Below are positions 29,595-49,383 of a stretch of DNA of 64,000 nucleotides, piece after piece. Location of the stretch: positions 32,001-96,000 of IMG/VR virus record IMGVR_UViG_3300027861_002706, one strand, 5' to 3'. Within the stretch, counting starts at the first letter, position 1; every line of letters begins with the position of its first letter. Position numbers and translations under genes: made by a program. The stretch is from a virus. Under the pieces are notes generated by a model. That model was not told the DNA's origin and ran no database searches. It worked only from the letters and a program-made list of their open reading frames with translations.

Positions 29595-32500
29595 CTACCC
29601 TTCTTCAAATTGATCGAGTATATCCGGGGCTTCTCCTTGAGAAGCGATAAAGTCAGCCCAGAGGTATCGCGCCTGCTCCATTATGTTATCTATGCCATGA
29701 GGATTGCTACTTGCGACATCGATTGCACGGAGCCCGGCAGAGAACACTGTATTATTATATCTTAAAAGTTTTATCTTGGCCGGGAGGTATACTGGTATAC
29801 TCCCATCAATACGGTGAGCGCCGGCAGAGAACACGTCTCCTTCATTTGCATCTATAACCGTTTGCTGAGATATAACTGGATTCAAGTACTCATCCATAAC
29901 ACTACTTCCACCTCGAAGCATCAATCGCCCATACACAACATTCAACCATATAGCTCTTGCTCCAGCGGTGATTCCTGCTCCAGCGATAGAGCCTATCGCA
30001 GCGTTTCTAGCAGATATCGCTGCGGTGTATGCCGCCGTCTCAGCAGCAGTAGCAGTAGCAGGAAGAGCCCCAGCGGCTATCAGCCTTATCTGCTCTCGTG
30101 TTAACATTGCCTCAGCTCTGGCTCCCAGGTGGCCAAAAAGGCCTGCGCCGAGGCCTTGGCTAGAGGAGGTGCCTCCACCAAATATAGCTCTACCTGCACT
30201 TATCAGTGGATCGCTAAGGCTATAAGGTGCATAGCCACTCTCTCCTGGCTGTAATGCCATTTTTTTAAGCGGTGCTCGAGCAACACCCTCTGCGAGGCGT
30301 CTGTTTGCTCTGTTTATACGTACATTTTGTCCGTATCTGTAGCCTCTTCTAAGAACGTTTCTGAATCCGGTTGTTGCCCAATTCCGCCAAACTGCTCGTT
30401 GTGCGACTCTTGCTCCAACAACGACTCCTGCTCCAGCGAGTCGAGCGCCGCTCGTAAGTATCGTTTTAAGTGTGAACCAGACACCTGATGTTATGCCACC
30501 GGTGAATATCGAGCCAAATAACGCTGCAACAGTTATTGTGTCCATTACGCCCATAAAGGTTTTACCGTTAGCAAAAGAATACATCCATCTCTCGGCCTGG
30601 CCTGCATTATACGTTCCCAAAAAGCTATTCACTCGGGTTAGACCTACTGGAACTACAGTAGTCGTCCATCCGCTAGTAGAACTGTAGTTTTGTATAACAC
30701 GTTCAGCCATTATTTCTCCATGGATATTATTGACATTATCTACAATCCTAACTGAGTCATAAGGTTTAATATTTCTACCAATCATGATTAAATTACCACG
30801 ATACATCTTTGATAAACCTTGTGCTAATCTGAAGTTATTAACTTGTAGAGCTAGATTAGGAGTAGTCGCATTTATCTCTGTAAAAGTTTCAAGGATATCT
30901 TCTGGACCAGCATATAATCCTGCATAATTCATGCCCACCGAATTTTTCCTGGGCCATATCCCAAACTCTTGGTCAGAATCTATCTGAAAAACCCCTGCTG
31001 ACTTATTGATTCCACCTTCTTCTATGCCATAGTTAGTTGGCCCCCAATCACCCCACCCCGCTGTTTCATTAACAGTATTAATGGGTACTCTCAAGGAAAC
31101 TGCACTCCACATATCGGACTGTGTCGCAACTACATTATTTGCTATTAGGTCATGATCAGAAGAGACTACATGGTGATCCCTAAATAGTTTATGAGTAAAC
31201 GGTAGCATCTCGCTAGTATCGTCTTTGCTATTCATTATATCTTGCAGGACATCATTGTCTCTTTCTTCGCCATCTAATCCGATAGGGTTGAGTAGCTTGG
31301 TTGCCAGCTGAAGAGCTTGTTTGTATTCCATCAATGTTTTTACTATATAATCAACTGCAAGACTGTTGCCTGCTGCGGGATTCCTTGCAAAAGAAGTAGA
31401 GAGCTCTTCTCTCTTCGACATAAGATTTTTAAAGATCGAGATTTTCCTATCGGTACGAGAAGTATCCATAAATGTTGATGTCAGGAAGGGAACAATAGCT
31501 ATTTGTTCCGTAGAGTTGACTTGCCAACTAGCATCGAGGTTTACCTCGACGGCAGCTCCTTCCTCTTTGCTCGTTGACTTAAATAATCCAAAGTCCGACT
31601 CGTTGCTAATCAACAATGGCCAAAAATCTAATCTCTGCCCCGCGTGGTGGACTGCATTTCCGCTAATCGTAGTACTATTAACTTCGAGAGTGTTATTCAA
31701 TAAAGCACTAAGGCTAATGCTAGTATATAGCGGATTAGGCTTAAATGAATTTCCTCCAAAATTATATAAGGAGTTCCAGTTGGTTGTATTAAGTACATTC
31801 TTGCTGTTTAATCTGATCTTAGCTATAGCCTTAGAAGCTGTAGCTAGTTTGGTAAAGTCTGCTTCAGTTAATTTGCTCGTGTCTAAATTAAGGAATATAG
31901 CGAGCAAATTAGCATGCACGTCATCAGAAAGGTAAGGTTCATCAGAGATGGGCCTGAAGAGTGTATTCACCACTAGGTCTTCTAATTCCTTAAAGCCTCC
32001 ATCTGCTTGGGAGAATGGGGCGGTCGGATGTACAGTAACTTCTGCTCCTGCGTTATAGCTAGCTCCGTATAGCTGGTATGCGTTTGTGTGAATATCAGAT
32101 TTTTCAACAGCGGCGATTTCACCAAGCTTAATTCTATTATATCTAGTTATTCTTTTACTTATCTTATCACTTATGTGATTAATCCGATGAGCAAGAATCC
32201 TATATTTTCCTAGTTTTCTAAAATCATTCGCTTGGGTTTTTAGAGAAGTTTGAGCATTGTAACGGGCGACATATTCGCTCTCTTCTTTTGTGGCCTCTCT
32301 GTACTGATATGGACCACAGGGATCACCAACGAATAGCGTGGCGTCTCCTTCGTAAGGAACAACGGTGGCTATAAAATTAGGCATATATCTTACAACTTCT
32401 CTTATCCCATCTATCGCCGGAGCATTGGTAATAAGCCACTCGTTTGCTACCTCGGTACTAGTTATTTCAGCATAATTTCCTACACAGTTATACACATTTC

Positions 32501-35500
32501 TAGATAAGTCAAACCCTTGCCAACCAAAATAGTTAGATTCCATAAATGCATCGCCCCAGCTAGCATTGTCTCCTTCGATCTCAGATATGAAACCTACAGT
32601 AGTTTCTGAACCGAGTATCCTTTGTATATTACTATTCTCTTGTTCGTATGAGAATATGACATTTTCAGCGCTACCAGGTCCACCAGGTCTATATGGATTC
32701 ACCCGAATTTTTTTGCCTAAGTGATATGGACCAGACACAGGGCTGTCTGTTGGATCATTGTCGATACCAAGCAATATGTAATTTATTATACTGATAAAAC
32801 CAACATGCTTATCGTAGCCTCCATACGCGAATTCTGGCCACCAATGTTTCATCATGTCCAAGAAGTCCTCTTCTATAAATCCTCCGAAATCAGTTTGTAG
32901 TTCAGACTGAAATCCCTGAGCAATAATTTCTACTATTTGTCCTGCTTTAACCTCTGCGATTGTTCCAGTAAATACTGTTTTTAGCGCGGCCAGATTATTC
33001 CCATATCCCATCTTGACTACTATATGAATACCTGGTCTAAGCATAAGCGTCTTAATAAATTTTTCGCCTGAGTCATCATCTACTAATTTAGGATCCGAAT
33101 TATTATAGAAAGAGGTGCTAGATAAAGTCCCACCAAAATTAGCTAGCTTCATTGTACATATATCATTATCATATATATGTGAAGAGATTGAGCACTCGAG
33201 TATCTCCTTATAGCCATGATAGTCGTCTTTTTGGTAATCCCGTTTTCGATCTTCTTCAACAAAGTACAGTCTTGCAGTAGGAAATGACTTCAACAAAGAT
33301 TCTGTTAAATCAGGCATATGGGATAATTGCTGCTCGCCCATCTTTGAATACTGATTTTCTCCATTAATGGGTACACTTATTCCGCTACCAGGTTGATAGT
33401 ATGTGGGAGTTTGAACATACTCCATTTTACTACCTTCATAGGCGTTCTTTTCTGGATTAAAGATTAGGCGGAGAGCCACTCGACCTGGATCGCTATTGTT
33501 ACCAGTCATAATAAACTCTATAACTGGATATTTATTTTTAACTGCTCCATAAAGCTGTTTTGCAAACTCAGCATGCGCTCTCTCATCAGTCCCTAGAATC
33601 AGCGATAATTCATTCACTACGTCCCCATTCTCGAGTATAACACTGGAACCCTCGGAGTTTAGTGATTCTTGATCAACTAGAGCCGCGCCAGCGGCCATTT
33701 CCGCTGGGTTTTTTATTGCGTTAAATAATTTCCCCAATGTCTCCTTACTGAAGGTATCTGTCTCCGGTCCATCACCAGTCTGTCCTGGCTCTTCATTGAT
33801 ATTTTTTAGTATCGTTAGTCCGTTTAGAGGGAGAGTTATAACTCCTGCGCCTGTTTTATGTCGTGGAGCAATCCCGTAGCCTTCATTTCGTGCTTCATAG
33901 TTTTGATAATCACTGATCATCAACATCTTATCTCTATTTCTATGATAAAAGATGTCGGGGTCTATATAGCTACTAGCTCGCGCAGATACGGTACTGGCTA
34001 TATCCTGTGTAGTCATCTTCATTAAATCAACAAATGGAATAGATGGGGTGATCCCATAGTCGCCACACTTTGGTGCGAATGCTTCCATTAAAGCATTAAA
34101 TATAACTTCAGCTTTTTCGGGACTTTCTGCTTTGCTTATCTCGGAAGAAAACAATTCGCTATAAGTAGGTAGATACATATCTGAATATAAGTCTATCTCT
34201 TTAGTATTAAACTGCTCAACTTCCTCTTCTATCATTTCGATGTCAGACATATTTATTTCTGCCTTATTGGCGATACCATATATCTTTGAGCCTGCTTCAT
34301 CTCTAAGGTAATTAAATTGCCATAGCCCTTTAAATTTTGCGACTAATTCTATCAATATGCTAAGAGAATTCTGCATGGACTCTCTGCTAGCGAATACGCG
34401 CCCTTGCTTTCCTAGAGTATATTTGTTATTTATTATACATTGAAAAATAGCATCCCATAGATCTTTGGGAATCATCTTGCCGCGCTTATGGAAAATATCT
34501 AATATACTATTTATATCATTAAGGTCTTCAGGAAGCTTTACTGACCAGAGGGTATCTCCGGTGTCCGGAAATTCTGTGTCGAGATTGTCAAAGAGTACCC
34601 CTTCTCTTACTCCATAATATGAATGCCCTTTAGGCCCCGACTCTATATCAACATCATGCCTCTCCATAGGATTTTTGACATGTGTGACTGGTGATTCCTG
34701 GTCTTTTCCCAGGGAGAGTATTCCCGCAAGCCAATTCACCTGGAAAACTCCTTGTTGGTGGCTTGGACCTGCTTTACTTCCACCCCCCCTCTTATACGCA
34801 TTGTCTATCTCAAACCATCGACGAAACTCTTCTGAGTTCCCCTCCTGCTCTCTGAGTGGATCTCCTGTCTCGATCTCTGTCCATTTCAATCCAAATACTG
34901 AAGCATAATTCGATTCTTTGTCAGCGCGCAATGCTCCATGGACTAACCTAAGCAGACTTTTATATACTTCCTTATGGGTACTAAGACCAGAGTCTATCAA
35001 TACTAATTCCTCTAGATCCCGATATATATCACCGGTAAGGAGTCGACCGGTTCTTTTCAGGGCGTACTGATAGATTATGCCCATAAAAATAGGCTGATAA
35101 TATGTATCAGCTGCATTCGCTGACTCTGGGGCTAACACTGTACTGAATTTACCTAGGTCATCTGTTAGACCTAAAACGCGCATTAAGCTATCTAGCCTGT
35201 CCATATCATTTGCAGTTACCTTATCCCTGATTGAACTCGAAGACTCGTCCCCATTCTCACCTGGTCCAGTGTTGCGCTCCCACCATACTTTGTATAGCTT
35301 ATAGAAATATTCCCAGACTGCTTCAAGAGGTTTGGTAGATACTGCCCCTTTCTCAAGGACTAGTTTCTCCGTATCATGGCTTTGTGTATTTTCCACTAAT
35401 GTGAGTATAAGCCGATACAGATCAGGAGAGTCTGGATCGGATTCTATTGTTACAGATTGCGGCGAGATTTTATTCACACCAAGAGAATTTATAAGCTGAT

Positions 35501-37037
35501 TTTCTATCCATCCGAAAGAGTTAAATACTGTTTGAGAAGCTTCAGCAGATACTAGCTTCGCTTTCATCGCCATGAAGTCAGCAATAATTTTTTTATTTCT
35601 GACTGCGAAGATAAGTTGGAACGAGTTTGAGTTTAAACCCATATACTGAATCATAGGAAATTTTGAGCCCATTAAAGGAATGTCAATTGATCTTGTATTA
35701 AATGTACCAGAGATCTTTTCTAGAACCAATGGACTACCTTCGTAGCCATTGGTGTATCTCGGGTTAGTAGTATCAAAGTCTATGATTCCACCGAATATAT
35801 CCCAATATGTTATTCTTAGATCATTGCTACCTATGGGAGTTATATTACCAGATTTACTTCGTTCTCCTGCTAAGGCTGCTATGGTTACATCTATCTCTTT
35901 TTTAATTCTATTGGACGCCTGGCTAACATATTCCATGCCCCAGTGACACTCGCTAGGATCGAGTGTAGGGCTGCCTTCTTTGTCCCGGTATAGAATAGTG
36001 CCAAAAGGGAACGCTGGAGAGCTCATTATCCCAAAACTAAATCGACCCAGTATGGCCCCTGGCATATCATGCATTGTCTGCATGCTTGCGCTTTTAAAAC
36101 AGACCGGGACAGGAAATTTAGGACCACCATTGTCTTGTCCGCCTGAATCTAGGTCTTTGAGAAGATTTGTATTATTCTCAGTCGACTTATTATCATTAAG
36201 TATATTCTTCATATGTTTTACTCCCTGAACAACTTCAGGGTGATTTTCAGTGAATAGGCCCAGGATATCATCGTAGGTATTATCGAGATCAAGAGCCTCG
36301 AGCATCCGATCAAATCTATTTTTCTCAGTATCGCCTTTACCTCCAATTACTTTTAATGCTGCTACGTCTCCGATCATATCGTATAAAGCAGGGTAGGCGT
36401 ACTGGGAGACAAAAGCCATGCATAAGGCAGAAGAATATATAGAGTTCATTGGCATAAACTTAAACATATTATATAGATTTATAAAGCTGGGATAATCTCT
36501 TTCTGTAGATGAGAACACCTCGAAATTGGGGAATATAATATCTATAGAGACCGTATGCTTTGACTTGCTATTTGCCATCATTCCCGATGACTTGGATCTT
36601 GCGACCGGCACAGGTGTATTTAATAAGTGCTCTTGTATATTGATAGAGCTTGGAATGATATAAGGAGAAGAAGACATCCCAGAAGACTCAATTATTTTAT
36701 AGAATCCTATTTGAGTAATATCTTCATTCTGGAAACGCAGGTCATCAAAAATTTGTCGCTTAGTGGCTAGTATGCCTTTAAGTATCTTCTGTCCTGTTTC
36801 TGGCAAAGGCGTGGGCGCGCTTGGATTCTCTAACTGCCAGTTAAAAAGTTTCGACTTGTATTTTGCTTTCTGATCCTCTGGTATCGTCTTACTGATATCT
36901 ATATCTTTTAGCGCGCCGAATAATATTTCATTATGCTTATCGAGATCTATAATACTTGTACTCATGAATTCGATTGGACTTCTACCGACCGATTCTAATA
37001 CTGTTTCGAGGGTTAGTATATCGCTAGTGGTAGGCAT
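29595..37037 (-). CDS. Giant baseplate hub protein (~2480 aa) with a gp27/gpD-like core, two N-terminal tube-fold-like modules and a hydrophobic/basic C-terminus
   Basis: PTARLYFVEED...ICTMKLAN...LRPGIHIVVKMGYGNN...VFTGTIAEV...IIAQG is gp27/gpD-like. Start placed at ATG 37037, just after the upstream stop, rather than 37103. Confidence 0.7.
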   Translation of the reverse strand: MPTTSDILTLETVLESVGRSPIEFMSTSIIDLDKHNEILFGALKDIDISKTIPEDQKAKYKSKLFNWQLENPSAPTPLPETGQKILKGILATKRQIFDDLRFQNEDITQIGFYKIIESSGMSSSPYIIPSSINIQEHLLNTPVPVARSKSSGMMANSKSKHTVSIDIIFPNFEVFSSTERDYPSFINLYNMFKFMPMNSIYSSALCMAFVSQYAYPALYDMIGDVAALKVIGGKGDTEKNRFDRMLEALDLDNTYDDILGLFTENHPEVVQGVKHMKNILNDNKSTENNTNLLKDLDSGGQDNGGPKFPVPVCFKSASMQTMHDMPGAILGRFSFGIMSSPAFPFGTILYRDKEGSPTLDPSECHWGMEYVSQASNRIKKEIDVTIAALAGERSKSGNITPIGSNDLRITYWDIFGGIIDFDTTNPRYTNGYEGSPLVLEKISGTFNTRSIDIPLMGSKFPMIQYMGLNSNSFQLIFAVRNKKIIADFMAMKAKLVSAEASQTVFNSFGWIENQLINSLGVNKISPQSVTIESDPDSPDLYRLILTLVENTQSHDTEKLVLEKGAVSTKPLEAVWEYFYKLYKVWWERNTGPGENGDESSSSIRDKVTANDMDRLDSLMRVLGLTDDLGKFSTVLAPESANAADTYYQPIFMGIIYQYALKRTGRLLTGDIYRDLEELVLIDSGLSTHKEVYKSLLRLVHGALRADKESNYASVFGLKWTEIETGDPLREQEGNSEEFRRWFEIDNAYKRGGGSKAGPSHQQGVFQVNWLAGILSLGKDQESPVTHVKNPMERHDVDIESGPKGHSYYGVREGVLFDNLDTEFPDTGDTLWSVKLPEDLNDINSILDIFHKRGKMIPKDLWDAIFQCIINNKYTLGKQGRVFASRESMQNSLSILIELVAKFKGLWQFNYLRDEAGSKIYGIANKAEINMSDIEMIEEEVEQFNTKEIDLYSDMYLPTYSELFSSEISKAESPEKAEVIFNALMEAFAPKCGDYGITPSIPFVDLMKMTTQDIASTVSARASSYIDPDIFYHRNRDKMLMISDYQNYEARNEGYGIAPRHKTGAGVITLPLNGLTILKNINEEPGQTGDGPETDTFSKETLGKLFNAIKNPAEMAAGAALVDQESLNSEGSSVILENGDVVNELSLILGTDERAHAEFAKQLYGAVKNKYPVIEFIMTGNNSDPGRVALRLIFNPEKNAYEGSKMEYVQTPTYYQPGSGISVPINGENQYSKMGEQQLSHMPDLTESLLKSFPTARLYFVEEDRKRDYQKDDYHGYKEILECSISSHIYDNDICTMKLANFGGTLSSTSFYNNSDPKLVDDDSGEKFIKTLMLRPGIHIVVKMGYGNNLAALKTVFTGTIAEVKAGQIVEIIAQGFQSELQTDFGGFIEEDFLDMMKHWWPEFAYGGYDKHVGFISIINYILLGIDNDPTDSPVSGPYHLGKKIRVNPYRPGGPGSAENVIFSYEQENSNIQRILGSETTVGFISEIEGDNASWGDAFMESNYFGWQGFDLSRNVYNCVGNYAEITSTEVANEWLITNAPAIDGIREVVRYMPNFIATVVPYEGDATLFVGDPCGPYQYREATKEESEYVARYNAQTSLKTQANDFRKLGKYRILAHRINHISDKISKRITRYNRIKLGEIAAVEKSDIHTNAYQLYGASYNAGAEVTVHPTAPFSQADGGFKELEDLVVNTLFRPISDEPYLSDDVHANLLAIFLNLDTSKLTEADFTKLATASKAIAKIRLNSKNVLNTTNWNSLYNFGGNSFKPNPLYTSISLSALLNNTLEVNSTTISGNAVHHAGQRLDFWPLLISNESDFGLFKSTSKEEGAAVEVNLDASWQVNSTEQIAIVPFLTSTFMDTSRTDRKISIFKNLMSKREELSTSFARNPAAGNSLAVDYIVKTLMEYKQALQLATKLLNPIGLDGEERDNDVLQDIMNSKDDTSEMLPFTHKLFRDHHVVSSDHDLIANNVVATQSDMWSAVSLRVPINTVNETAGWGDWGPTNYGIEEGGINKSAGVFQIDSDQEFGIWPRKNSVGMNYAGLYAGPEDILETFTEINATTPNLALQVNNFRLAQGLSKMYRGNLIMIGRNIKPYDSVRIVDNVNNIHGEIMAERVIQNYSSTSGWTTTVVPVGLTRVNSFLGTYNAGQAERWMYSFANGKTFMGVMDTITVAALFGSIFTGGITSGVWFTLKTILTSGARLAGAGVVVGARVAQRAVWRNWATTGFRNVLRRGYRYGQNVRINRANRRLAEGVARAPLKKMALQPGESGYAPYSLSDPLISAGRAIFGGGTSSSQGLGAGLFGHLGARAEAMLTREQIRLIAAGALPATATAAETAAYTAAISARNAAIGSIAGAGITAGARAIWLNVVYGRLMLRGGSSVMDEYLNPVISQQTVIDANEGDVFSAGAHRIDGSIPVYLPAKIKLLRYNNTVFSAGLRAIDVASSNPHGIDNIMEQARYLWADFIASQGEAPDILDQFEEG

Positions 37038-37038
37038 A

Positions 37039-40000
37039 TTAGAATACCGAGTCCATTCTATCTCTGAGGTCTGTGGCGATTTCGCTTCGAGCCATTGTAC
37101 CATTTAACTCAGATCTAAATGAACCCTGAATCTTTGGAACGTACCCATTATGAAGCGCATATTGGTTCGTCATGCCTCTAAAATCTGCTGGCGCATTCAT
37201 CTTACCCGATACATTGAGTCTGCTTCTTTTCCCTTCGGATCTAGTGATACGAGCTATTCTGGTATTAGGCATTGCATTCGGATTAAATGTCGGGTCATTT
37301 GGAGTTGACATCACTGGAACTGGAGGTAATGTTCCCGAAGAGTTATACATAGATACCGGTACATTGCCGGGTGAGAATCTATCTAACGTAGATCGGACCG
37401 CCTCTATCCCTGCGAGGCCTCCTATTACCGCAGCAGCAGGCTTAAAGAACTTTGTTCTACTTATATTCTGGAAGAATTCGCCGCTCAACATACCAGACCT
37501 AGACGCGTTCGAGCTGACGCTTGCTCCACCTACCCTAGCATTGTCTGGGCCGTAGTCGGCTATATTCACATTATTCTGCCGCATCCTAGTCATTGTTTCA
37601 TGAAACTCAGCAGATAGAACTTCGTTGAGGCCTGCGCCACTTGTATCCATCGCTGCTAATCCTTGGAAGTCGGCCATAGTCAATGAAGCAATACCAGACG
37701 CGCCAAAGACATTATCGTTAACTAGTCCGCCTATTACTGAACTAAGGTTTCTGACTACACCCTCGAATGGCATTCCTAGTCCGGTTCCCCTGGTCCCTAC
37801 TTGTAACTCTTGGGCCATCACTTCTATAAACATCATTCGTTTTGCAAGATTGTGTGCAAGTTGTCTCATCTGTTCGTCATTACCGGAGCCACTCAGCTTT
37901 TGTAATATACTTAATGTTTGTGGCTCCATTTCATGGAGCTTTCGGAACAAACCATCTGTCCCGGGTTCTATGATCTCTGCTGCCCTTAACAAGTTATTAG
38001 ATACTTGATCGATAAGATCCCCAGCTTTAGTCCCACTCCTGCCTTCTATCAGGTCATACATGAACCCCATGCTGCCGTGGTCCATATCAGATCTGGCCTG
38101 AGAGGAACCCGCCTTCAATGCGTTAAGGATAAGCTCTGCTGGTTCCTGCCCAGAAACACCGTGTGCAGCCTTTTTGAGGAACATATACTTTATCAAGTTC
38201 CGCGCATCTGTATAATGATATGTTGAAGCAGTACGAGTAGGCCCACCTGCCCCGGCCACGCTCTCTGTAAAGATGCCGCTAGCCTTACCTAAAAATTTAC
38301 CCAGGCGATCTATTCCCGCATCGTCTAACCTGGCTTCAAGGTTAGTCCTTAACAGACTTTGACCCTCACCGCTAGCCTGCAAGTCTATTAACTGTGTAAC
38401 CATATAGTCGACATAAGATCTAGCTCTGAAGTGCCCCTCGACAATAGGAGTAGAATGCCCATGGCCAGCTATTTTTATCAATGACTCGAAGGTATGCTGT
38501 CTTACAGTTGCCTCTGACGTCATATCTGCGGTCTGAGATATAAGCTTATTGACATCTCCATAATTAAAACTAGTCTGCCCAGCTAGGCCTAAGCTCCTCG
38601 CCATTTCATTATCTGGACTACCTTTAAGATTACTAAGTATGCCATCCATCATTTCTATTTGTCCTTGATGGATACCCCTCATAGTGGAATCGTCCATACT
38701 AGCTAGTCTAAATAGATTGATAGCATCTTTGTCAAGGTCGCCTTCAGCTGCAAACTCAATCAGCATATTATTAAGATATGCTGTATGCTTGAACTCAAAA
38801 TCATCGACTATATCTGCAGAAGCGAAAGCTGTATCCTTCAGCAATACAGTCTGAAGCGCAAACATTTGGCGTCCGCCTGCAGCAGGTTCTCTTACTCCAG
38901 TAGTATAGTGCTTCCCAGCCCATGCCTTTTCGACTAGCTTGTCTAGTGCACCATCATCCATTCCTGGCGTAAAGTGCATGGACCTGAATGCTTTTTCGGT
39001 CATACCAACCTGGAATTTGCCAAGACTGCTATGAGTCTGTAGCCGCATTCTTGCGCCAGATTGTATCCCTGCAGCACCTATCTCTGATGAATAGAATAAG
39101 CCTTGTTTGGCCATTGTATTAGCGGCCATTACTTGATAAAGCTTATCTAGTTTTTTTCCTATATCGGATGTTTCAGCAAGCCGGTTATCTGCTGAGCTAT
39201 CCCTGAGTGTCTCCACGCTTTCTAATATATCCAGATACATTGATTGAGCTTCTACCTTGGCGCTTTGTCCAGAGCCTAGCTTGGCAGCCGCATCATCGGC
39301 TAGCTTCTCAAATTGCCTCCCTCCTTGTGAGACTCTTACAAAGCCTTGCTCTTCAATGAATTGCATAGTTTTTGCGGAGGGGACAAGCATTGGCCCATGT
39401 TCACCTTGGATCAAGAATGCTTGATCTGAGATTTTGGCCACACCACCCTCACTGGAAACTAGTCCGAGCAGGCTTTTGCCAATATCTTCAAGGTTCACTT
39501 TACCAGAGGCACCACGTTTTCTCAGTTGATTGATACCATACTCGGATTCAATACCTCCAGCTGCAAGTTTTGGCCTAAATCGCTTAGGCCCTATCTCTCC
39601 ACTCCCGTAAGCCTCCCCCTCTCCTTTAAATTTAAGCCGAGATACATCTCCAGTTTTGAGATCTCCATCAGCGCCTATCTTTCTCAGAGCCTCAAATCCG
39701 AAGCTCGTCTCTTTGAAGTGCCTCATCTGCTGATAGATAAGACTCATCTCATGATCTTTGGCGAATATTGCTGGATTCGCTTCGCTCAGAGCGTTAAAGA
39801 TTAGTCCCTTTTTCTCACTAATCTGCTTCTGATGGAATCGCTGATTAGAATAAGGCTGGTTAGTGTCGGGATTTATATATTTTCCATCACGTTTTTTGAG
39901 AAGCTCGCCAGTTTTGGGATCTCTATCTGGATGCATTCTTTGCCCGTGAGCAAAGTCAACAGACTCTGCAAGCATCATTAGATCTCTTTGTTTTATACTG

Positions 40001-42696
40001 AGTGCATTCCTGCCGAAAGAACCCATAGGTTCTTCCGCTCTTGTTCCTACCTCCGCTGCGAGAGATGCCATCATATATTGCTTACCTACATCGAGATTTT
40101 TAGTACCGATAACCCCCATTCTTGCGAGTGTCTGATTAAGCGAGCCTGCTTGTTCCCTTAATGCAGCCTCGGCTTGTTCTTGCGTATGAGCTGGTAACTG
40201 TTTTAATATCTCGTGGACATCAACTTCATGGAATGTCTTTTCTATTAGTTCCTTGAATAGAAGAGAATCTTTTCCTCCGGCGGCCTCATGTAGGTGCTTC
40301 ATGAACTGCTCGTTGGTTACACGTTCTAACTTGCTCCCCAGGCCGTGGATCTGTGTAGTTATCCCACTACCTATTATCTCTTGGTTAGAAGTTCCGCCCA
40401 TTACGTTTACTAATCGCTGAGTAGCAACTTCGCTCCCAGTCTCTGTGATAATATGTGCAAGGTTCCTGAGCAGTGTTTCGTTAAAGCCGAAGTCAAATCC
40501 CTCTGCAACTCCCTTCATTGCGTCTGAACTCCACCGGCCAGAACCGGTTTTCGTCCTATCCATATCCTTAATTCCCTTAACGGAAATTCCTAGATCTCCC
40601 ATTACAAAATGTTGTCCCCCAGATGAATCTATTCCTGTGAGCTGTCCTACGATAGCTTGCACTGCGGTAGGTCCAACAACCTGAGATGTACTAACCCTCT
40701 GGCTACCTACCATATGTCCTGCACTAACACTAGTACGTGCGGGTGCCCTTGTAGTCCTATGCGGCCCTTCCGCCATGATTAGTTCCAGCTGCCCAGTTCC
40801 AGGAATTAATCTATATCCGGTGACATATGTATGATCCGGATCCATTCCTCGCTGCTTAACAATATTCATCATATCGTTAGCATGCCTGAGGTCTTTCACC
40901 ATCACATCTTCAGATCGAGCCACCCCTTGTCCAATTACTGCTTTATCTATACCAGCAGGTTGTACGTCGAACCCTACCGCGGAAATAGATCTTCTAACTT
41001 TACGGTCTGCTGTAACCTGCAAGTCATATTCAAGAGCTTTTAGCTGGATCGGACTACCAAAATTTACCTTTTGATCGCCTGCGACTTTGCTGGTCATCGA
41101 CTGTTGATGCTGTCCAATTGCATCGACTAAATCATTACGCAGGAATCCTAAAAATTCTTGAGTCCCATCCTCTAAAATCTGGAGCTCTTTGAGATTGATT
41201 TTATGGGATACGGTACGTCTAGACATACCAGTCATAGGATCAAGATCTAGCTGCTTCACTAGCTCGCTAGACATCACTACACCAGAGTCGCCAAAAATTG
41301 CTTTGTTTAATACGGGGTCTGCAAACTGTAGTCCTAACGCCCTTATTCCAAAAGCTACGTCGTCAGAGATGCTCGCACCCCCACGTGCACTTCTGATTTC
41401 GTGCTTTAATAATTCGTTAGTCTCACTACTGAAACCCATTATCTCTGCTACAGCTGTAGGCAATTCTTTAATATCTCTTAGGACAATCGGGGCCCTGGAC
41501 AGATGAAATTGCCTGCCTTTTTCGAACGTTTCCTGTCCGGGTAATACAGTAAGGTTTTTAACATCCTCAATAGTTCCTTTGATATATACTCTCTGCTTAC
41601 CCCTACTACCATCTGCGAGGTTGGGCCTGAATGCAGATTCTGCGCTTTGTGGAGTCCATGCAAAATTGAAATTCTTGAGTCTTTCACTAAGAGGATCAAT
41701 ACCTAGCGCAGATGATCCTTCGGGGACTCCACGTTTAGTAATCCTCTCTATATGATCTGTTACGGCTTGTTGCGCAGTATTCAGCTCTCTGCGCATTTCT
41801 CCCGAATTAAATCTTTCTGCATGGGTATGAGGATCATATCCAGTAATCAGTATCTGCCTTAGTCTGTCTTCCTCTAGCATGAGTTTGAACAGGTCGGAAT
41901 CCTGACTCACTTCTAGCATTATTTGGTTTCTGGCCCCGAGAAGATGCCTACCTAGCTTAGGCTGGCCAGAGTACGACATGGGGTCAATCATTCCTGCGCT
42001 ATTTTTAGTACGCATCTCGAACGGGAGTCTATTGTCGAATAAGTCCTCTGTAGCCCCAATCACTTGATTTATAGTCTTATTTAATTTGCTAAAATCAGAC
42101 TGATCCTTCATTACTGTATTGATTTCTCGATATACTGTTTCAGAAAAACTTGTAGGTTTTGTCAGACGATCGTTTCCTCCGATAGTTCCAACACCAGCAG
42201 GAACGCTATATGTACTACCTCCTTTGAACATATACTCATTCGCGCTCTGGCTAACTCTCCCAGGAAAATCCGGATTCATATCATCTGCGAATAGAGGTAT
42301 GTGCACAGCCTTTTTACCTTGGCCATGAGGAGTAAACACAAGTGAGCCACCCCTGTGAACTAGCGTGCCTTCATTGCTACCTGCTATACCTGTTATTAAC
42401 TGGCTAAGTCCCTCGCTCTGGGAGCCAGTCTTATATACATCTGGTAAATTATCTATACTACTAATTGTTTTCCCAGGTAGACTCAACTTGACCTTGGAGA
42501 ACAGATCTTCTTGAGTGGTGCCTGTCGAGGCTCCTATGGCCAGTGCTGCTGCTAGGTTTGCTTTAGCGGTGTGGCTAATTCCACCACGCAGAGGAGGGGT
42601 TTCACCGAAATGAATATCGACTACATCTCTTTGAAATACCTTTATTGCATCTTGTCCCTCACTTGAGGCGGATCCAGGTGTGGGGGTGCTGGCCAT
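37039..42696 (-). CDS. Putative single-chain two-barrel (beta+beta'-like) RNA polymerase or RNAP-derived virion protein (1885 aa)
   Basis: Collinear motifs: FGDSGVVMSSELV (aa ~470, beta FEDS-like); AGHMVGSQRV (~660); ALSIKQRDLMML (~900, like GQRFGEMEVWAL); AKQGLF (~1197, like GKQGRF); GVREP (~1269, like NRAP); GDLDKDAINLF (D1320/D1322/D1324, like ADFDGD). Confidence 0.6.
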   Translation of the reverse strand: MASTPTPGSASSEGQDAIKVFQRDVVDIHFGETPPLRGGISHTAKANLAAALAIGASTGTTQEDLFSKVKLSLPGKTISSIDNLPDVYKTGSQSEGLSQLITGIAGSNEGTLVHRGGSLVFTPHGQGKKAVHIPLFADDMNPDFPGRVSQSANEYMFKGGSTYSVPAGVGTIGGNDRLTKPTSFSETVYREINTVMKDQSDFSKLNKTINQVIGATEDLFDNRLPFEMRTKNSAGMIDPMSYSGQPKLGRHLLGARNQIMLEVSQDSDLFKLMLEEDRLRQILITGYDPHTHAERFNSGEMRRELNTAQQAVTDHIERITKRGVPEGSSALGIDPLSERLKNFNFAWTPQSAESAFRPNLADGSRGKQRVYIKGTIEDVKNLTVLPGQETFEKGRQFHLSRAPIVLRDIKELPTAVAEIMGFSSETNELLKHEIRSARGGASISDDVAFGIRALGLQFADPVLNKAIFGDSGVVMSSELVKQLDLDPMTGMSRRTVSHKINLKELQILEDGTQEFLGFLRNDLVDAIGQHQQSMTSKVAGDQKVNFGSPIQLKALEYDLQVTADRKVRRSISAVGFDVQPAGIDKAVIGQGVARSEDVMVKDLRHANDMMNIVKQRGMDPDHTYVTGYRLIPGTGQLELIMAEGPHRTTRAPARTSVSAGHMVGSQRVSTSQVVGPTAVQAIVGQLTGIDSSGGQHFVMGDLGISVKGIKDMDRTKTGSGRWSSDAMKGVAEGFDFGFNETLLRNLAHIITETGSEVATQRLVNVMGGTSNQEIIGSGITTQIHGLGSKLERVTNEQFMKHLHEAAGGKDSLLFKELIEKTFHEVDVHEILKQLPAHTQEQAEAALREQAGSLNQTLARMGVIGTKNLDVGKQYMMASLAAEVGTRAEEPMGSFGRNALSIKQRDLMMLAESVDFAHGQRMHPDRDPKTGELLKKRDGKYINPDTNQPYSNQRFHQKQISEKKGLIFNALSEANPAIFAKDHEMSLIYQQMRHFKETSFGFEALRKIGADGDLKTGDVSRLKFKGEGEAYGSGEIGPKRFRPKLAAGGIESEYGINQLRKRGASGKVNLEDIGKSLLGLVSSEGGVAKISDQAFLIQGEHGPMLVPSAKTMQFIEEQGFVRVSQGGRQFEKLADDAAAKLGSGQSAKVEAQSMYLDILESVETLRDSSADNRLAETSDIGKKLDKLYQVMAANTMAKQGLFYSSEIGAAGIQSGARMRLQTHSSLGKFQVGMTEKAFRSMHFTPGMDDGALDKLVEKAWAGKHYTTGVREPAAGGRQMFALQTVLLKDTAFASADIVDDFEFKHTAYLNNMLIEFAAEGDLDKDAINLFRLASMDDSTMRGIHQGQIEMMDGILSNLKGSPDNEMARSLGLAGQTSFNYGDVNKLISQTADMTSEATVRQHTFESLIKIAGHGHSTPIVEGHFRARSYVDYMVTQLIDLQASGEGQSLLRTNLEARLDDAGIDRLGKFLGKASGIFTESVAGAGGPTRTASTYHYTDARNLIKYMFLKKAAHGVSGQEPAELILNALKAGSSQARSDMDHGSMGFMYDLIEGRSGTKAGDLIDQVSNNLLRAAEIIEPGTDGLFRKLHEMEPQTLSILQKLSGSGNDEQMRQLAHNLAKRMMFIEVMAQELQVGTRGTGLGMPFEGVVRNLSSVIGGLVNDNVFGASGIASLTMADFQGLAAMDTSGAGLNEVLSAEFHETMTRMRQNNVNIADYGPDNARVGGASVSSNASRSGMLSGEFFQNISRTKFFKPAAAVIGGLAGIEAVRSTLDRFSPGNVPVSMYNSSGTLPPVPVMSTPNDPTFNPNAMPNTRIARITRSEGKRSRLNVSGKMNAPADFRGMTNQYALHNGYVPKIQGSFRSELNGTMARSEIATDLRDRMDSVF
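41379..41423. repeat. 45-bp exact direct repeat, copy 1 (inside the 1885-aa gene)
   Basis: CCCCACGTGCACTTCTGATTTCGTGCTTTAATAATTCGTTAGTCT is identical to 49339-49383. The flanking bases differ on both sides. Confidence 0.95.
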
Positions 42697-42697: not shown

Positions 42698-45600
42698 TTA
42701 GCTCCTTAGTATTTCTGATGCTATTCTAAAGTAATCGTCAAGTTCTTTTCTCGAAGTCATATCATAGTTGACTATATTTTCTAGCCCGGATCCGAGATCC
42801 TCGTTTATGTCGTAATCAGTTATACCTGATTGCATTAACTCTGCTTCCAACTGCTGTCTAGCTGCAGCATCTAGTCCAGATCTGGTATAAAAGTGATAGA
42901 TATCTAGATCTGGTTCTGGGAATTCTGTTCTTAACCTATTTGCAGTTCTTGCAAACACCCCCGACCTGTGAGCATCATTAGAGACTGACCCCCAAACAGA
43001 ATCCATTGTTCTGATTCGAACAGCATTCATTGGAACATCTGGATGGAACCCAGCCCAATCTGCTCCTGGCATTCCATGTGCCATCATGCTTTGTGCAGCT
43101 CTGGCATCGGGGTGTCTTCTTATATTGCTATAGTCAAATGAAGTATCTCCTTGCTTTGCCCAGGCTGCCTGATATACCGGTTTTAAGTACTCAGGAACAT
43201 ACTGCAATACTTCTTTACGTTTAGACGTAGTGAAGTCGAGGGACCTCATGAACAGCTGCTTTTCCCTTGTTGGCAAAGCGATTAGGGAGTCTCGCACAAA
43301 CTGCTTAGCCCCTAAAGAATAGTCCAGTGATGCTACTGTCCGTTTTTTAAGATCTATAAAGTGCGCTGCTACTTTATGTAGTCCTTCTACCTTCGCCTTT
43401 TTCTCTAGACGCCGTAGCTTTATGTATTCTAGTGAATCAAAATATTCATCCATTCTTCTTCTATCGGTGACATACTCGGGGACGTAGCCTCCAGCTAGCT
43501 GACCAGTATTCATCGCCCGTATAGACGAACTACCCCCAAAGTGAATCGCTCCGGCAGTGGACATCACTATACGAGAGATGGGATTCGCACCCATGAGAAC
43601 TCCGGTAGTGAACCCACCGATAGTTGCAGTAAACGGATCTGTTGCTTTGAGCTGCTCTGCCATTGGTCTTAGCATAGTAGTATATGGCTTAGTCCAATCA
43701 TACTCATCTGTATCGTATACTTCTCTTTTAATATATGCGTCAAGCTCGTCTCTAACTGGCAGCATCTTGTTCGACAACATTGGACCGAGTATAGGTATTG
43801 TTATACCCAATCTAGCTACTATGTCATGCGAGAACACTTCCCATGCAGCACCAACTGCTTGCTCCGGAATAGTGTAATAGGCGTCTATGCCCTCTTGGTT
43901 TTCTTCATTGGTTTTTTGCTCGACTAGTCCGGAGAATTGTTCTCCTATCGAAGTAAATTTTCTAGAATATGTAGCGTACCTGTTTAACTTCTGCTTAACG
44001 CCTTCTTTTGTTTTTACTAACTTATCTGTCCAATATTCATCTACTGTTCCAGACTTAAGCATAGAGTCTACAAGTATACTGTAATGCTTATAGGATTCAG
44101 AATGGGGAGCAACATCCGCTAACACCATGAATCTATCTACAGCGTCATATATCCCAGGAGATCCACTATGCAGTCTAAAGGCAATTTCTTTAGCTGTGCC
44201 AGGCAACCTTAGTTCGCCATGGGGTATCTTTGAGTATGGGTCACCCGTACTGAAATCTATGTGGTAGTTTGTGTCTCCCGGGAAAACCCCCATTGCTGTA
44301 TTCCCAGTAAAGCTGGATCTGGATCCAGGTAACCAGGATGGCATCGTATTAGGAATAGTATTTGTAGCTTGTCGCTGTGCTTGAAGATAATCAGACATGA
44401 CAAATCTACGAAGAAGCTCAGTGTGCCCCATCAGGCCACCAACGCTTTCATCATAGAAAGCTCTAGTCGTAGAATTCATAAACCCAGCATCTGCTAGCTG
44501 AGGCGCAGATGGATTAGTGGACTTAAATGGCATGTCCCATAGTCCGAATTTATAGATACCAGAAAGCTCACTCATATGAGCGATGCTAGTAGACAAAGTC
44601 GCGCTCTTTTTAGCAGGAGATAATTCCGCCCTTGCGGGATACGGATCCATTCCCATCTCTACTACTGACTCACCTGGAGTTTGGTATGCTCTTAACCCAG
44701 TTGCGTTACCTCCCGGTACGCCCATGCTTCCTATGGTCCTATTCGATAATTTTTCTATAGAAAACGCAGTAGGGTAGGGTCTATCAAATCTATGTTTCTC
44801 TGCTAGATATTCATCTCCGGTAGGATCGAACATAGCTCCGACTAGAGGCATGTGCTCTAGAAGAGATCCAACGGCAGGAATATCAGTCAGTGGGTTTAAT
44901 ATATTTCCCGCAAGCTCTGGTACTCTAAACAGATTGCTTGGGGTCGGTAGAAAACTTACGCTTCTAAAATATTCTGCCTGGGAGCCATATAGTGTATCGG
45001 TATACTTGTACTCAGATCGCATCCTGGCAAACATGCCAGGAGCAAAATAACTTATTTTTCCACCACTAAAAGGTTGCTTACCAAGCATCCAATATCTACC
45101 GGACCTCATAGGAACCGGTTGCTCACCAGATAATATATCTCTAGTTTCCTTAGGGGTTTCTGTTATGCCTGGGAACGGAAGTTCTCCGATAGCTGCAGAT
45201 ATTCCTCCGGCTATGAGTAGGCCACTTTTGTTTGGTAGCATTTTTAGCGCGATTGCAAACGGTGCTATTGTCCGTATAAAATCTGAGGCTGAACTTTCCA
45301 CAGATCCTGGCATCAAGTCTTCCATATATCTCGCTGCAGGAGATACACCAGTAAACTCTCTCAAGAACTGTGCAGAGATTTTAGCTACACTATAGGCATC
45401 TAACAGTAAGTTAGAGGCCTTGTACCCACCAGTAGGAATACCAGATAAATAATCTGCATATTTTACCCCCTCTAGAGCTAAAGCTCCTCCCGCTGCCATA
45501 CCAAATATTTTTGCCGTGTTTCCTACAAAGCCAAACATTCCTGGAGTAGCTCTGAAGCCAAGACCTGTAGTCGCTCCAATCAAGTCATTGAGCCTAGTAG

Positions 45601-47320
45601 TCATAAAGTTAGCTACATCTGCTAGCCTACTAGAGATGTCGGACTTGAATGCGAATGAATCTAGGGGGCGAGTTTGTCTTCTCTCGAATCCACCAACTGG
45701 TCCGGCAGATACATTCTCGATGGCAGTAGCAGGGCGTACGCCGTAATCAGATTGGCTAACACCCTTTACTGGCTTGACTACTTTCTTGAGTATTCCACTT
45801 CTTTGTTCTCTCTGCACATACTCAATAGAAGTTTCATCTCCTAATGCAGCAAGTACATCTCGCTTAGTCTCCTCGAAGTATCCACGATCCCTGGGGTCTG
45901 GCCTAGATTGCCTCTGTACTCTCTGCCTAGATTGATCAATTAAGTCTAACTTAGATCCATCAACCTCAGAAGTTCCAGTCCTTCTTGCTACTTCTTTCGC
46001 CGTCTCATCTATTCGAGTAGTTTCTTTTACTACAGGTGTTCCCTTAGTCCTCCTTTTAACAAGATCGGTTGTAGCTCTTTTAAGGAAAGACTCTTGTGTC
46101 GCATACTTCCTTCCTATTCCTATGTCGTCTAATAGCGCATTAAACCATTTTAGTACAGGATTCCTAGATGTAGATTCTATTTCCTCAGAGGACATTCGAG
46201 TCTGGCTTTTAAGTTGCCCCCTGCTGGCAAGTACTGCTTCACCTATCTTGTTCTTTCCGCTTGCTCTATATCCGGAATCAACAAATTCAAGCTTAGCAGC
46301 AGTACTACCGTCTCCTCTGGGGGCTATTTTGAATAAGTCTTCACCTATTACGAGCCTGTGTGCAGCAGGATCAGATACCTCAGGCGCACGAACTATTGCG
46401 GAAGCTTCACCTTTACCGAAGAGGTGCCTAATGGGCCCAGCAAAAATATCACTAACACGCAGATTCGCAAACGGTAACTGAATTTCATCTGTCAGTCTTT
46501 TTAGTATACCACCGACATGTTGGCCACTTAATATTCTTGTGTCTATGACCTTTTTTGTAGCTGTATCTAAGAATATTCTTTCATCTATTCTTTGATCACC
46601 CGCAAGCAATCCCCATCTTTTCGCATCCACTAAGCCATCTATCTGATCTTTACCAAACAGATCAACAATTTGTTTATGCTGGATACTGTCTGTAGACATA
46701 GCGATAAGTTTATCGACGGTAAGATCTTCTACGCCTTCAGCTGAATTAAACTGTCGGGTATACCTTTCTCTAATCGACTCACGCATTCTAGTGACAATAT
46801 CTTGGGCGTCCTGAGATATTGATCTTGTTCCTTCAACACCGCTAAAGAACGTGCCATGAATGTCTGCCTGATGCAATGTATCAAGATTTCTCTTCGTATC
46901 TTCTAGTATTTGAAGATGTGATATTAGAGGTGTACCTTCGGCTGTCATCCTGAGATTGGCAGCCGCTGCTTCATCAATCTTACCGGACAATCCTCCGGCG
47001 GTAGCAGCAATATTTAGATAAGTTTTAGATGCCGCCCGCTGGCCCCTATTAAGCATACTGGTGAGCTTACCAGCCACCTCCATACCTAGGTTGCCTAACG
47101 GTCTTTTAGATATTAAATTTACTGCTGCACCAATTAATGCTATCTTTGATATATTGCTAGAAAGCGCATAGTTCTCTCTTAGTATACGCTCTTCGTTAAA
47201 GGCGGGCTCGTCATCTCTAGATGATGCAATTCTATCTCTAAGCCGCTCAGGATCTTGGATAAGATCCCTATGGAAACTATAATCTCTAGGTAGGTTGGAC
47301 TTATTTCTTTCTGATGGCAT
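42698..47320 (-). CDS. Tape measure-like protein (1540 aa)
   Basis: Follows the tube paralogs and chaperones. Ala/Gly-rich helical sequence with hydrophobic stretches (GMFGFVGNTAKIFGMAAGGALAL). SD GGAG. Confidence 0.65.
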   Translation of the reverse strand: MPSERNKSNLPRDYSFHRDLIQDPERLRDRIASSRDDEPAFNEERILRENYALSSNISKIALIGAAVNLISKRPLGNLGMEVAGKLTSMLNRGQRAASKTYLNIAATAGGLSGKIDEAAAANLRMTAEGTPLISHLQILEDTKRNLDTLHQADIHGTFFSGVEGTRSISQDAQDIVTRMRESIRERYTRQFNSAEGVEDLTVDKLIAMSTDSIQHKQIVDLFGKDQIDGLVDAKRWGLLAGDQRIDERIFLDTATKKVIDTRILSGQHVGGILKRLTDEIQLPFANLRVSDIFAGPIRHLFGKGEASAIVRAPEVSDPAAHRLVIGEDLFKIAPRGDGSTAAKLEFVDSGYRASGKNKIGEAVLASRGQLKSQTRMSSEEIESTSRNPVLKWFNALLDDIGIGRKYATQESFLKRATTDLVKRRTKGTPVVKETTRIDETAKEVARRTGTSEVDGSKLDLIDQSRQRVQRQSRPDPRDRGYFEETKRDVLAALGDETSIEYVQREQRSGILKKVVKPVKGVSQSDYGVRPATAIENVSAGPVGGFERRQTRPLDSFAFKSDISSRLADVANFMTTRLNDLIGATTGLGFRATPGMFGFVGNTAKIFGMAAGGALALEGVKYADYLSGIPTGGYKASNLLLDAYSVAKISAQFLREFTGVSPAARYMEDLMPGSVESSASDFIRTIAPFAIALKMLPNKSGLLIAGGISAAIGELPFPGITETPKETRDILSGEQPVPMRSGRYWMLGKQPFSGGKISYFAPGMFARMRSEYKYTDTLYGSQAEYFRSVSFLPTPSNLFRVPELAGNILNPLTDIPAVGSLLEHMPLVGAMFDPTGDEYLAEKHRFDRPYPTAFSIEKLSNRTIGSMGVPGGNATGLRAYQTPGESVVEMGMDPYPARAELSPAKKSATLSTSIAHMSELSGIYKFGLWDMPFKSTNPSAPQLADAGFMNSTTRAFYDESVGGLMGHTELLRRFVMSDYLQAQRQATNTIPNTMPSWLPGSRSSFTGNTAMGVFPGDTNYHIDFSTGDPYSKIPHGELRLPGTAKEIAFRLHSGSPGIYDAVDRFMVLADVAPHSESYKHYSILVDSMLKSGTVDEYWTDKLVKTKEGVKQKLNRYATYSRKFTSIGEQFSGLVEQKTNEENQEGIDAYYTIPEQAVGAAWEVFSHDIVARLGITIPILGPMLSNKMLPVRDELDAYIKREVYDTDEYDWTKPYTTMLRPMAEQLKATDPFTATIGGFTTGVLMGANPISRIVMSTAGAIHFGGSSSIRAMNTGQLAGGYVPEYVTDRRRMDEYFDSLEYIKLRRLEKKAKVEGLHKVAAHFIDLKKRTVASLDYSLGAKQFVRDSLIALPTREKQLFMRSLDFTTSKRKEVLQYVPEYLKPVYQAAWAKQGDTSFDYSNIRRHPDARAAQSMMAHGMPGADWAGFHPDVPMNAVRIRTMDSVWGSVSNDAHRSGVFARTANRLRTEFPEPDLDIYHFYTRSGLDAAARQQLEAELMQSGITDYDINEDLGSGLENIVNYDMTSRKELDDYFRIASEILRS

Positions 47321-47998: not shown

Positions 47999-48001
47999 AT
48001 C

Positions 48002-48481: not shown

Positions 48482-48495
48482 TGTCTCTCCTTAAT

Positions 48496-49296: not shown

Positions 49297-49338
49297 TTAA
49301 TAGAATCCTTTAAGCATAATTGTTCCCGCCGTATCTAG

Positions 49339-49383
49339 CCCCACGTGCACTTCTGATTTCGTGCTTTAATAATTCGTTAGTCT
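49339..49383. repeat. 45-bp exact direct repeat, copy 2 (spans the stop codon of the 262-aa tube paralog)
   Basis: Identical to 41379-41423. Covers exactly 15 codons of the 262-aa reading frame, including its TAA. Confidence 0.95.

Follow-up and report, generated by a model that had tools for sequence, protein, structure and literature searches.

A giant protein in the tape-measure slot of an uncultured contractile-tailed phage is probably a single-chain two-barrel RNA polymerase

What kind of protein occupies the tape-measure slot of a contractile-tail operon when Pfam and PHROGs return no match to it? This question is raised by P0001, a giant open reading frame (ORF) on the minus strand of the IMG/VR virus record IMGVR_UViG_3300027861_002706. 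The window analysed here, 64,000 nucleotides long, comprises bases 32001-96000 of this linear 117.6-kb record, which is judged 91% complete and may lack its ends. An earlier note on the same DNA had read P0001 as a diverged single-chain two-barrel RNA polymerase (RNAP)-like protein that is packaged in the virion and ejected. Virion-delivered RNAPs of the two-barrel kind have been demonstrated experimentally in few phage groups: the phiKZ/AR9-type jumbo phages, the crAss-like phages with gp66, and P23-45 with gp96. Both gp66 and gp96 were shown to transcribe the earliest genes of their phages without relying on the polymerase of the host (PMC10770324; bioRxiv 10.1101/2020.03.07.982082). Conserved motifs, a predicted fold and gene order indicate that P0001 is probably a single-chain two-barrel RNAP, lodged in the tape-measure slot of a contractile-tail operon.

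The P0001 gene is intact, with its ATG at 42696 and its stop at 37039-37041. Three giant genes (1540, 1885 and 2502 aa) are translationally coupled here, and P0001 stands in the middle. Its start codon overlaps the stop codon of the 1540-aa gene upstream, and its 3' end shares 65 nt with the beginning of the 2502-aa gene. Every large gene of the window is on the minus strand. Homologues comprise 16 full-length proteins found among 5.8 billion, two representatives from a profile scan and two locus-derived sequences; this set of 20 aligns at 30-45% identity and defines the family used below. The layout of the gene, as read from family alignments and models, is as follows.

37039-42696 (-): whole P0001 gene, 1885 aa.
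41368-42696 (-): N-terminal region, aa 1-443, kept within the family; no fold recognised.
40597-41367 (-): candidate beta-like barrel (double-psi beta-barrel B, DPBB-B), aa ~444-700, with a poorly modelled insertion; from QDE-1 alignments and predicted secondary structure.
39115-40596 (-): connector between the barrels, aa ~701-1194, about 500 residues; from alignment and model.
38632-39114 (-): predicted beta'-like catalytic barrel (DPBB-A), aa ~1195-1355; from structure matches in two models and hhalign.
38884-38892 (-): R1269-E-P1271, counterpart of beta' N-R425-A-P427; R and P invariant.
38725-38742 (-): G1319-D-L-D-K-D1324, predicted metal-binding loop; the Gly, the three Asp and the fourth-position Lys invariant; between strands in both models.
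38362-38463 (-): tentative bridge-helix counterpart, aa ~1412-1445; placed where alignments end, a weak assignment at a predicted local distance difference test (pLDDT) score below 50.
37462-38361 (-): C-terminal helical region, aa ~1446-1745; low-confidence model, with an invariant Y..R....YM.LKK block at aa 1495-1509.
37387-37449 (-): Gly/Ala-rich hydrophobic segment FKPAAA(I/V)xGGLAG, aa ~1750-1770, conserved in the family.
37042-37371 (-): Pro-rich linker and highly conserved C-terminal domain, aa ~1776-1885, with SGKM, DFRG, NGY..IQGSF and a terminal F.

A bare DxDxD motif is unremarkable, because six other ORFs of the genome carry one (about 0.3 would be expected by chance in 1885 residues); what exceeds chance is its conservation. 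D1320, D1322 and D1324 lie at 38725-38739, exactly where the earlier note had placed them, and are invariant in 20/20 aligned sequences. The flanking G1319 and K1323, together with R1269, P1271, K1197, G1199, L1219 and G1231, are invariant in alignments of 16-20 homologues. The Asp triad and the preceding Arg, whose retention in homologues the note had singled out as decisive, are thus kept throughout. Around them, P0001 carries in sequence order NKAIFGDSG (aa 464), EDVMVKD (596), TYVTGYRL (623), LELIMA (637), SAGHMVGSQRVS (658), ALSIKQRDLMML (898), MAKQGLF (1195), SGARMRL (1213), SLGKFQVGMTEK (1224), GVREP (1267) and GDLDKD (1319). All six segments that the note had likened to a beta-to-beta' fusion are therefore present in the order it gave, while its third segment and its 'flap-like' label gained no confirmation.

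In the beta'-like part the correspondence with E. coli can be followed residue by residue. The K-Q-G to S-G spacing is 16 residues in P0001 and in E. coli beta' alike (MG1655 record), and the motif alignment equates K1197 with K334 and R1269 with R425. The Q-x-G of 'HQCGLP' is offset by one residue between the two proteins, and the distance from R-x-P to the Asp loop is 51 residues in P0001 versus 35 in E. coli beta'. The fourth loop residue is an invariant Lys in the P0001 family and a Gln in Acinetobacter phage vB_AbaM_ME3 (ME3); elsewhere Gly is near-universal.

Two template-free AlphaFold models were built separately. Model 1 covers aa 440-1440 and used the 20-sequence alignment (mean pLDDT 63.9, predicted template modelling score, pTM, 0.55; 443 residues with pLDDT of at least 70), and model 2 covers aa 1080-1730 (pLDDT 53.9). 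When model 1 was compared with the PDB by Foldseek, the best 50 matches were RNAP largest subunits without exception (50/50), led by the AR9 non-virion RNAP (nvRNAP) at E 6.9e-5 and including plastid-encoded polymerase (PEP), E. coli, Thermus and Mycobacterium beta', the phiKZ nvRNAP and Pol I A190. E. coli beta' 343-497 lies on model residues 765-918 (aa 1204-1357) at 4.0 Å root-mean-square deviation (rmsd) over 124 residues and 16% identity, and an offset of -421/-422 sets D1320, D1322 and D1324 on beta' D460, D462 and D464. Structure-based and motif-based offsets agree within 2 residues over 150 residues. With model 2, the top Foldseek rows were again almost all of beta' type, and the eight best matches of an exhaustive aligner (VIA) were Rpb1, A190, PEP beta', NRPD1, Mycobacterium tuberculosis beta', S. 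pombe A190, Rpo147 and archaeal A'. All eight map to aa 1208-1355, at an rmsd between 2.9 and 3.9 for 106-117 residues (human Pol I, 2.9 Å over 106); a designed DPBB protein and a CDC48 N domain were also among the model 2 matches. The DPBB fold that the earlier note had expected around the Asp loop was thus found in two independent models, and in both of them the loop lies between beta strands and not in a coiled coil or helix. At moderate model confidence, a beta'-type catalytic DPBB-A is predicted at aa ~1195-1355.

The beta-like half of the core is read from QDE-1, in which the first barrel precedes a connector at residues 793-919. QDE-1 from its first-barrel start (672-676) to 1032-1109 aligns on model 1 residues 3-982, beginning at model residue 3-5, at 10% identity and rmsd 6-9 Å; QDE-1 676-1032, from the start of the first barrel to the end of the second, falls on P0001 aa 444-1351, with high rmsd in a medium-confidence model. 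Within the candidate DPBB-B, the family alignment leaves F468, D470, S476, R629, G660 and R667 invariant, and R629 and R667 may be the basic residues of a beta-type barrel. The connector contains an invariant block, SDQ..GP.GPM.(I/V)PS(A/P)K, at aa 1090-1109 and a long helical hairpin at aa ~1127-1204. Some beta'/Rpb1 alignments extend past the catalytic barrel to the helix at aa ~1412-1445: that of 6byu_D ends at model residue 993 versus beta' 797, inside GARKGL..SGYLTRRL (778-800). Here the invariant R1426-S-Y1428-x-D1430 was compared with beta' S793-G-Y795-L-T-R-R-L and, with pLDDT <50, this helix is put forward tentatively as a weak bridge-helix candidate; no trigger loop was recognised after the barrel.

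A search of BFVD with model 1 returned as best viral matches an ME3 protein, a 'Minor tail protein', and RNAP subunits of phages, nucleocytoplasmic large DNA viruses and nudiviruses; the second half of ME3_36 matches at E 3e-4. Two entries, A0A7R7G2L5_2 and A0A8S5SD80_1, align over more than 1100 columns on the 1001-residue core model (E 2.5e-10 and 3.8e-7), and one of them, from a Siphoviridae contig, bears the name 'Minor tail protein'. To judge from these model comparisons, both are likely to be further tail-associated single-chain polymerases. None of gp66, gp96/gp64 or the PolD chains is among the structural matches listed, an absence from the list that excludes no match.

Where the gene lies is as informative as what it encodes. 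On sequence grounds the phage belongs to the lineage of Bacillus phage 0305phi8-36: by terminase and the 1540-aa protein, its only cultured relatives are Moorella MTATph1, 0305phi8-36, Edson/WH1, KLEB27-3 and ME3. The tail module around P0001 is made up as follows.

50890-52446 (-): sheath gene, among the upstream tail genes.
50219-50890 and 49366-50154 (-): tube-like genes, among the upstream tail genes.
47324-52446 (-): upstream tail block, including three small chaperone-position genes; from annotation matches and synteny.
42698-47320 (-): giant gene of 1540 aa, upstream of P0001; homologous to 0305phi8-36 ORF145 and to the 'virion structural protein' ME3_35.
29595-37103 (-): giant gene of 2502 aa, downstream of P0001; corresponds by position to 0305phi8-36 ORF147 and to the 'baseplate hub protein' ME3_37.
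26828-27967: baseplate wedge subunit, among the downstream baseplate genes.

P0001 thus lies, as the earlier note had stated, inside a contractile-tail module, with sheath, tube-like and chaperone-position genes upstream and baseplate genes downstream. In 0305phi8-36 the order is sheath, tube, tube paralogue, two 'tail chaperonins', ORF145, ORF146 and ORF147. Because P0001 is syntenic with ORF146, a 'hypothetical tape measure protein', it occupies the slot that is annotated as the tape measure. ORF146 (2537 aa) was identified in virions by mass spectrometry, and WH1 gp095, in the same slot, is annotated as a virion structural protein; ORF147 is a 'baseplate hub protein' with peptidoglycan-degrading domains. 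The note had placed P0001 between the tape-measure and hub genes: synteny upholds the hub side but does not point to the upstream 1540-aa gene as the tape measure. The note's picture of a stand-alone gene beside a separate tape measure gives way to that of a tape-measure-slot occupant, nearer to P23-45 gp96, and as in gp96 the polymerase-like core lies within the tape-measure-position protein of a tail operon.

The giant-gene trio is syntenic in 9/9 related metagenomic contigs, and its members are conserved to different degrees: the 1540-aa protein retains 57-70% identity among relatives, versus 30-45% for P0001 in the same contigs. It is also the only one of the three that BLAST detects in cultured phages (0305phi8-36 ORF145, ME3_35, Moorella CDS0026 and Edson 0930). 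Pfam and PHROGs searches with both giant neighbours gave only an RQC match below threshold and a stretch resembling an endolysin in the 2502-aa protein (the 'endolysin' PHROG phrog_20474, around aa 1348-1402), and profile searches of PDB sequences with the two families gave nothing useful. Paralogy among the three giants was considered and none was detected. The tube-position genes match phrog_9206, labelled 'major head protein', a label repeated in the Moorella record; it looks like a misnomer, because the 0305phi8-36 counterparts are annotated as tail tube and tube paralogue.

The same slot was then read in the cultured phages. In Edson, WH1, KLEB27-3 and ME3 the gene order is as here: chaperones, an ORF145-like gene, the slot gene and the hub. 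The slot protein of Edson (GAKEdson_0920, L022:15172-22719) carries NRYPT...KADHDGD, that of KLEB27-3 (gp034, L023:2-7303) carries NRYPT...KADYDGD, which is the QDE-1 form, and that of ME3 (ME3_36, L020:16409-21220) carries SREPAQG...GGDHDQD; all three are annotated only as hypothetical or structural. DxDxD is lacking in 0305phi8-36 ORF146 (L019:24002-31615) and in Moorella MTATph1 CDS0027 (L021:15468-19397), and some members of the lineage therefore appear to lack the polymerase core or to have lost it. 0305phi8-36 encodes a YonO-like RNAP elsewhere in its genome (PMC7824862). In Moorella MTATph1 the slot gene is followed directly by a transposase gene. P0001 and the slot proteins of 0305phi8-36, Edson, KLEB27-3 and ME3 share a Gly/Ala-rich hydrophobic segment, a Pro-rich linker and a small C-terminal domain, a likeness of architecture only and statistically not significant. 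Hydropathy does not support a true transmembrane helix in the C-terminal hydrophobic segment of P0001, the maximum Kyte-Doolittle value (1.14) being under the standard threshold.

Sequence comparison proper leaves the family isolated. P0001 found no match among PDB sequences, either by phmmer or by hmmsearch with the family profile, nor by tblastn against 50,697 phage records, and a HMMER scan of 1.84 billion representatives with a 1051-position core profile gave 11 matches, all within its own family and none a distant relative. The profile check that the earlier note had suggested found nothing: PF00623 (RNA_pol_Rpb1_2) and PF00562 (RNA_pol_Rpb2_6), run against the phage genome alone, gave no match at E <= 10, with controls positive in 14/14 genomes. 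P0001 is not filed in these two families, because no match exceeded the curated cut-off. PF00940 also found nothing in the phage genome, with an uninformative control. Neither Pfam nor PHROGs detects a tape-measure domain (e.g. PF10145, PF20155) in P0001, and the ESM Atlas offers weak neighbours only (<=0.82), unnamed or tape-measure-like, those with PF10145 at 0.78. BLAST finds no similarity between P0001 and the same-slot proteins of cultured phages.

Pairwise profile alignment with hhalign gave a mixed picture. Nothing significant was obtained for the family against gp66 (probability 0.06) or against 0305phi8-36 ORF146, ME3_36 and Edson, for the beta-like region against rpoB, or for the N-terminal, helical and C-terminal regions against the same-slot proteins, several best local matches of which fell in equivalent C-terminal places. 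Within the 1407 residues of E. coli beta', the best local match of the barrel profile fell at 333-372, the KQG..SGR..QCG stretch, with a pairwise E of only 0.051. Against KLEB27-3 gp034 this profile aligned colinearly over 99 columns at E 8e-4, pairing 'agRfRLQT' with 'SGRFRIQG' and 'REP' with 'NRYP'. By these searches the P0001 family is small, isolated and fast-evolving. Such isolation fits the published pattern of gp66 and gp96, whose likeness to other RNAPs is confined to the DxDxD region (gp96, PMC10770324; gp66, bioRxiv 10.1101/2020.03.07.982082).

Among known systems, the nearest by position is gp96 of P23-45 (also of P74-26, G20c and TSP4), a fusion of a virion two-barrel RNAP with the tail tape measure protein (PMC10770324). 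With P0001 as predicted here it shares a single-chain two-barrel core in a giant tape-measure-position protein, an RNAP likeness limited to the DxDxD neighbourhood, and a presumed injection through the tail to transcribe the first phage genes. However, gp96 belongs to a long non-contractile tail, reads DFDGD, and has its RNAP at the N-terminus, ahead of ~3800 tape-measure residues that include metallopeptidase and transmembrane domains. P0001 is encoded in a contractile-tail operon, reads DLDKD, has ~440 residues before the core, ~450 after it and a ~500-residue connector, and is flanked by two further giant virion genes. The crAss-like phi14:2 gp66 (PDB 6VR4; bioRxiv 10.1101/2020.03.07.982082) is likewise a giant single-chain two-barrel RNAP (2180 aa) from a block of giant virion genes. 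QDE-1 is its closest solved relative and is also the best whole-core match of the P0001 model, and both proteins have a non-Gly fourth loop residue (DFDID, DLDKD) within a local R-x-P..G...G-x-D-x-D-x-D pattern; gp66 differs in its podovirus-like crassvirus setting and its connector of ~140 residues. QDE-1 and the eukaryotic RNAi polymerases (PDB 2J7N, 7Y7P) differ in other ways: QDE-1 is a eukaryotic cellular enzyme with DYDGD, whereas P0001 has far larger insertions and virion-related termini. The phiKZ/AR9 jumbo-phage RNAPs are also virion-carried two-barrel enzymes of large myophages, and their beta'-N subunits are top Foldseek matches, but they consist of 4-5 polypeptides clearly akin to cellular beta/beta', are encoded outside the tail module and are recognisable by sequence profiles.

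Several of these observations weigh against a polymerase in this slot. Sequence-library and profile searches tie P0001 to no RNAP; the models are of moderate to low confidence, and the Asp loop itself has pLDDT <50; for the beta-like barrel the evidence is the QDE-1 superpositions only, at rmsd 6-9 Å in a medium-confidence model. The structures of gp66 and gp96 do not appear among the matches listed, and the predicted metal-binding loop has Lys, not Gly, at its fourth position. Moreover, the slot need not hold a polymerase, because 0305phi8-36 ORF146 and its Moorella counterpart are without DxDxD. Three other explanations draw on these points, and we consider each of them less likely, mainly because the catalytic residues are invariant and independent lines of evidence agree.

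P0001 might have a structural role, in tape measurement or ejection, and its polymerase-like core might be a relic without activity, kept for assembly or for passage through the tail. The annotation of the slot in 0305phi8-36, the missing DxDxD there and in Moorella MTATph1, the Lys in place of Gly, and a tape-measure-like C-terminal third with its helices, hydrophobic segment and conserved terminal domain would all suit such a protein. Against this, the three Asp, Arg-x-Pro and KQG/QxG have remained strictly invariant while the rest drifted to 30% identity, a pattern typical of a working active site, and gp66 is active with DFDID despite its non-Gly residue; we hold a relic to be unlikely. 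Slightly less probable again is that P0001 is a true two-barrel polymerase serving a different purpose, such as RNA-dependent RNA synthesis, priming or PolD-like DNA synthesis, or one made after infection. The best whole-core match, QDE-1, does have both RNA- and DNA-templated activity, and no DNA polymerase was recognised in the scanned parts of the genome. However, the P0001 gene is translationally coupled and flanked by virion genes in a tail operon, a primase-helicase is encoded by the phage itself, and the known phage members of the two-barrel superfamily are DNA-dependent RNAPs; that PolD chains are not among the structural matches listed is weak evidence in the same direction. The least probable explanation, in our estimate, is that P0001 is no polymerase at all, that the RNAP matches are modelling or search artefacts of a shallow alignment, and that DxDKD is an unrelated metal-dependent or structural site. 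The silence of the sequence libraries, an alignment of only 20 sequences and the low pLDDT at the loop speak for it. An artefact would hardly put RNAPs on top in both Foldseek and an exhaustive aligner with two separately built models, bring motif and structure offsets to E. coli beta' into agreement within 2 residues over 150, or direct the best hhalign local match to the right 40 residues of a 1407-residue protein; and same-slot proteins of cultured relatives carry the textbook NRYPT...ADYDGD.

The surroundings of the gene add some observations of their own. An exact 45-bp direct repeat occurs at 41379-41423 and 49339-49383, with similarity stopping abruptly at both edges: one copy lies in P0001 (codons ~425-440), shortly ahead of the first barrel, and the other covers the 3' end of the tube-like gene 49366-50154 and the sequence directly downstream of it. 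A regulatory element and a recombination scar are both possibilities. A greedy non-overlapping ORF pick on the 117.6-kb record gives ~83 genes, with 11 intergenic gaps of at least 60 nt. The genome encodes a primase-helicase and a ribonucleotide reductase and has a large operon for glycan synthesis. When 20 large ORFs outside the window were scanned with Pfam, none was recognised as a DNA polymerase, and ORFs of 2025 and 1496 aa outside the window had no Pfam match. Pfam scans, a DxDxD survey and PF00940 made no second RNAP evident in the genome; the other DxDxD ORFs, considered as candidates for one, showed only unconvincing chance motifs.

How would a polymerase in this slot work? The earlier note's diverged single-chain two-barrel RNAP-like protein finds support in the fold, the context of the Asp loop and conservation. 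The analysis shows the motifs, the predicted fold and the synteny; packaging, ejection, template and catalytic activity we infer, by analogy with gp66 and gp96. In the proposed scheme, the beta-like barrel at aa ~444-700 would be followed by a ~500-residue connector and by the beta'-like barrel at aa ~1195-1355, in which the catalytic Mg2+ would be bound by the loop G-D1320-L-D1322-K-D1324. P0001 would be anchored in the tail or virion through its helical C-terminal third, hydrophobic segment and small C-terminal domain, and would be assembled into the particle with its 1540-aa and 2502-aa neighbours. At infection it would exit through the tail and transcribe the first phage genes without the host polymerase, as gp66 and gp96 do. 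The non-Gly fourth loop residue of gp66 goes with an autoinhibited crystal conformation unable to bind Mg2+, and the enzyme is active nonetheless (bioRxiv 10.1101/2020.03.07.982082); by analogy, it is plausible that the P0001 polymerase would need an activation step after ejection.

A wider proposal can be made with some reserve: an entire lineage of contractile-tailed phages, including these ~118-kb uncultured phages, ME3, Edson, WH1 and KLEB27-3, may keep its early-transcription enzyme as the tape-measure-slot protein. This enzyme would transcribe, and perhaps help to pull in, the phage DNA, with the C-terminal hydrophobic module holding the polymerase at the envelope. We regard this as possible, at rather under even odds. 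Material on which it can be tested is available, because the cultured ME3, Edson, WH1 and KLEB27-3 have a same-slot protein.

The principle of a polymerase in the virion is known from P23-45 and the crAss-like phages; what would be new is its place in the tape-measure slot of the 0305phi8-36 lineage, and a search of a collection of papers found no published description of an RNAP in this slot of that lineage or in myophages generally. If the interpretation is right, the 'polymerase in the tape measure' principle of P23-45 would reach beyond a single group of thermophilic siphophages and hold for myophages too, there with a loop that has an unusual Lys or Gln, and the infected cell would receive the polymerase as one of the earliest molecules. 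As a caution, tail length may not be readable from how large the gene in the tape-measure position is. Giant 'hypothetical' or 'tape measure' proteins of contractile-tail operons would represent another, independent-looking branch of the superfamily that sequence profiles have missed, and would supply very divergent sequences for the study of RNAP-core evolution, among them one whose catalytic loop has Lys where Gly is near-universal. Early transcription that does not depend on the host would then be commoner in large myophages than is annotated.

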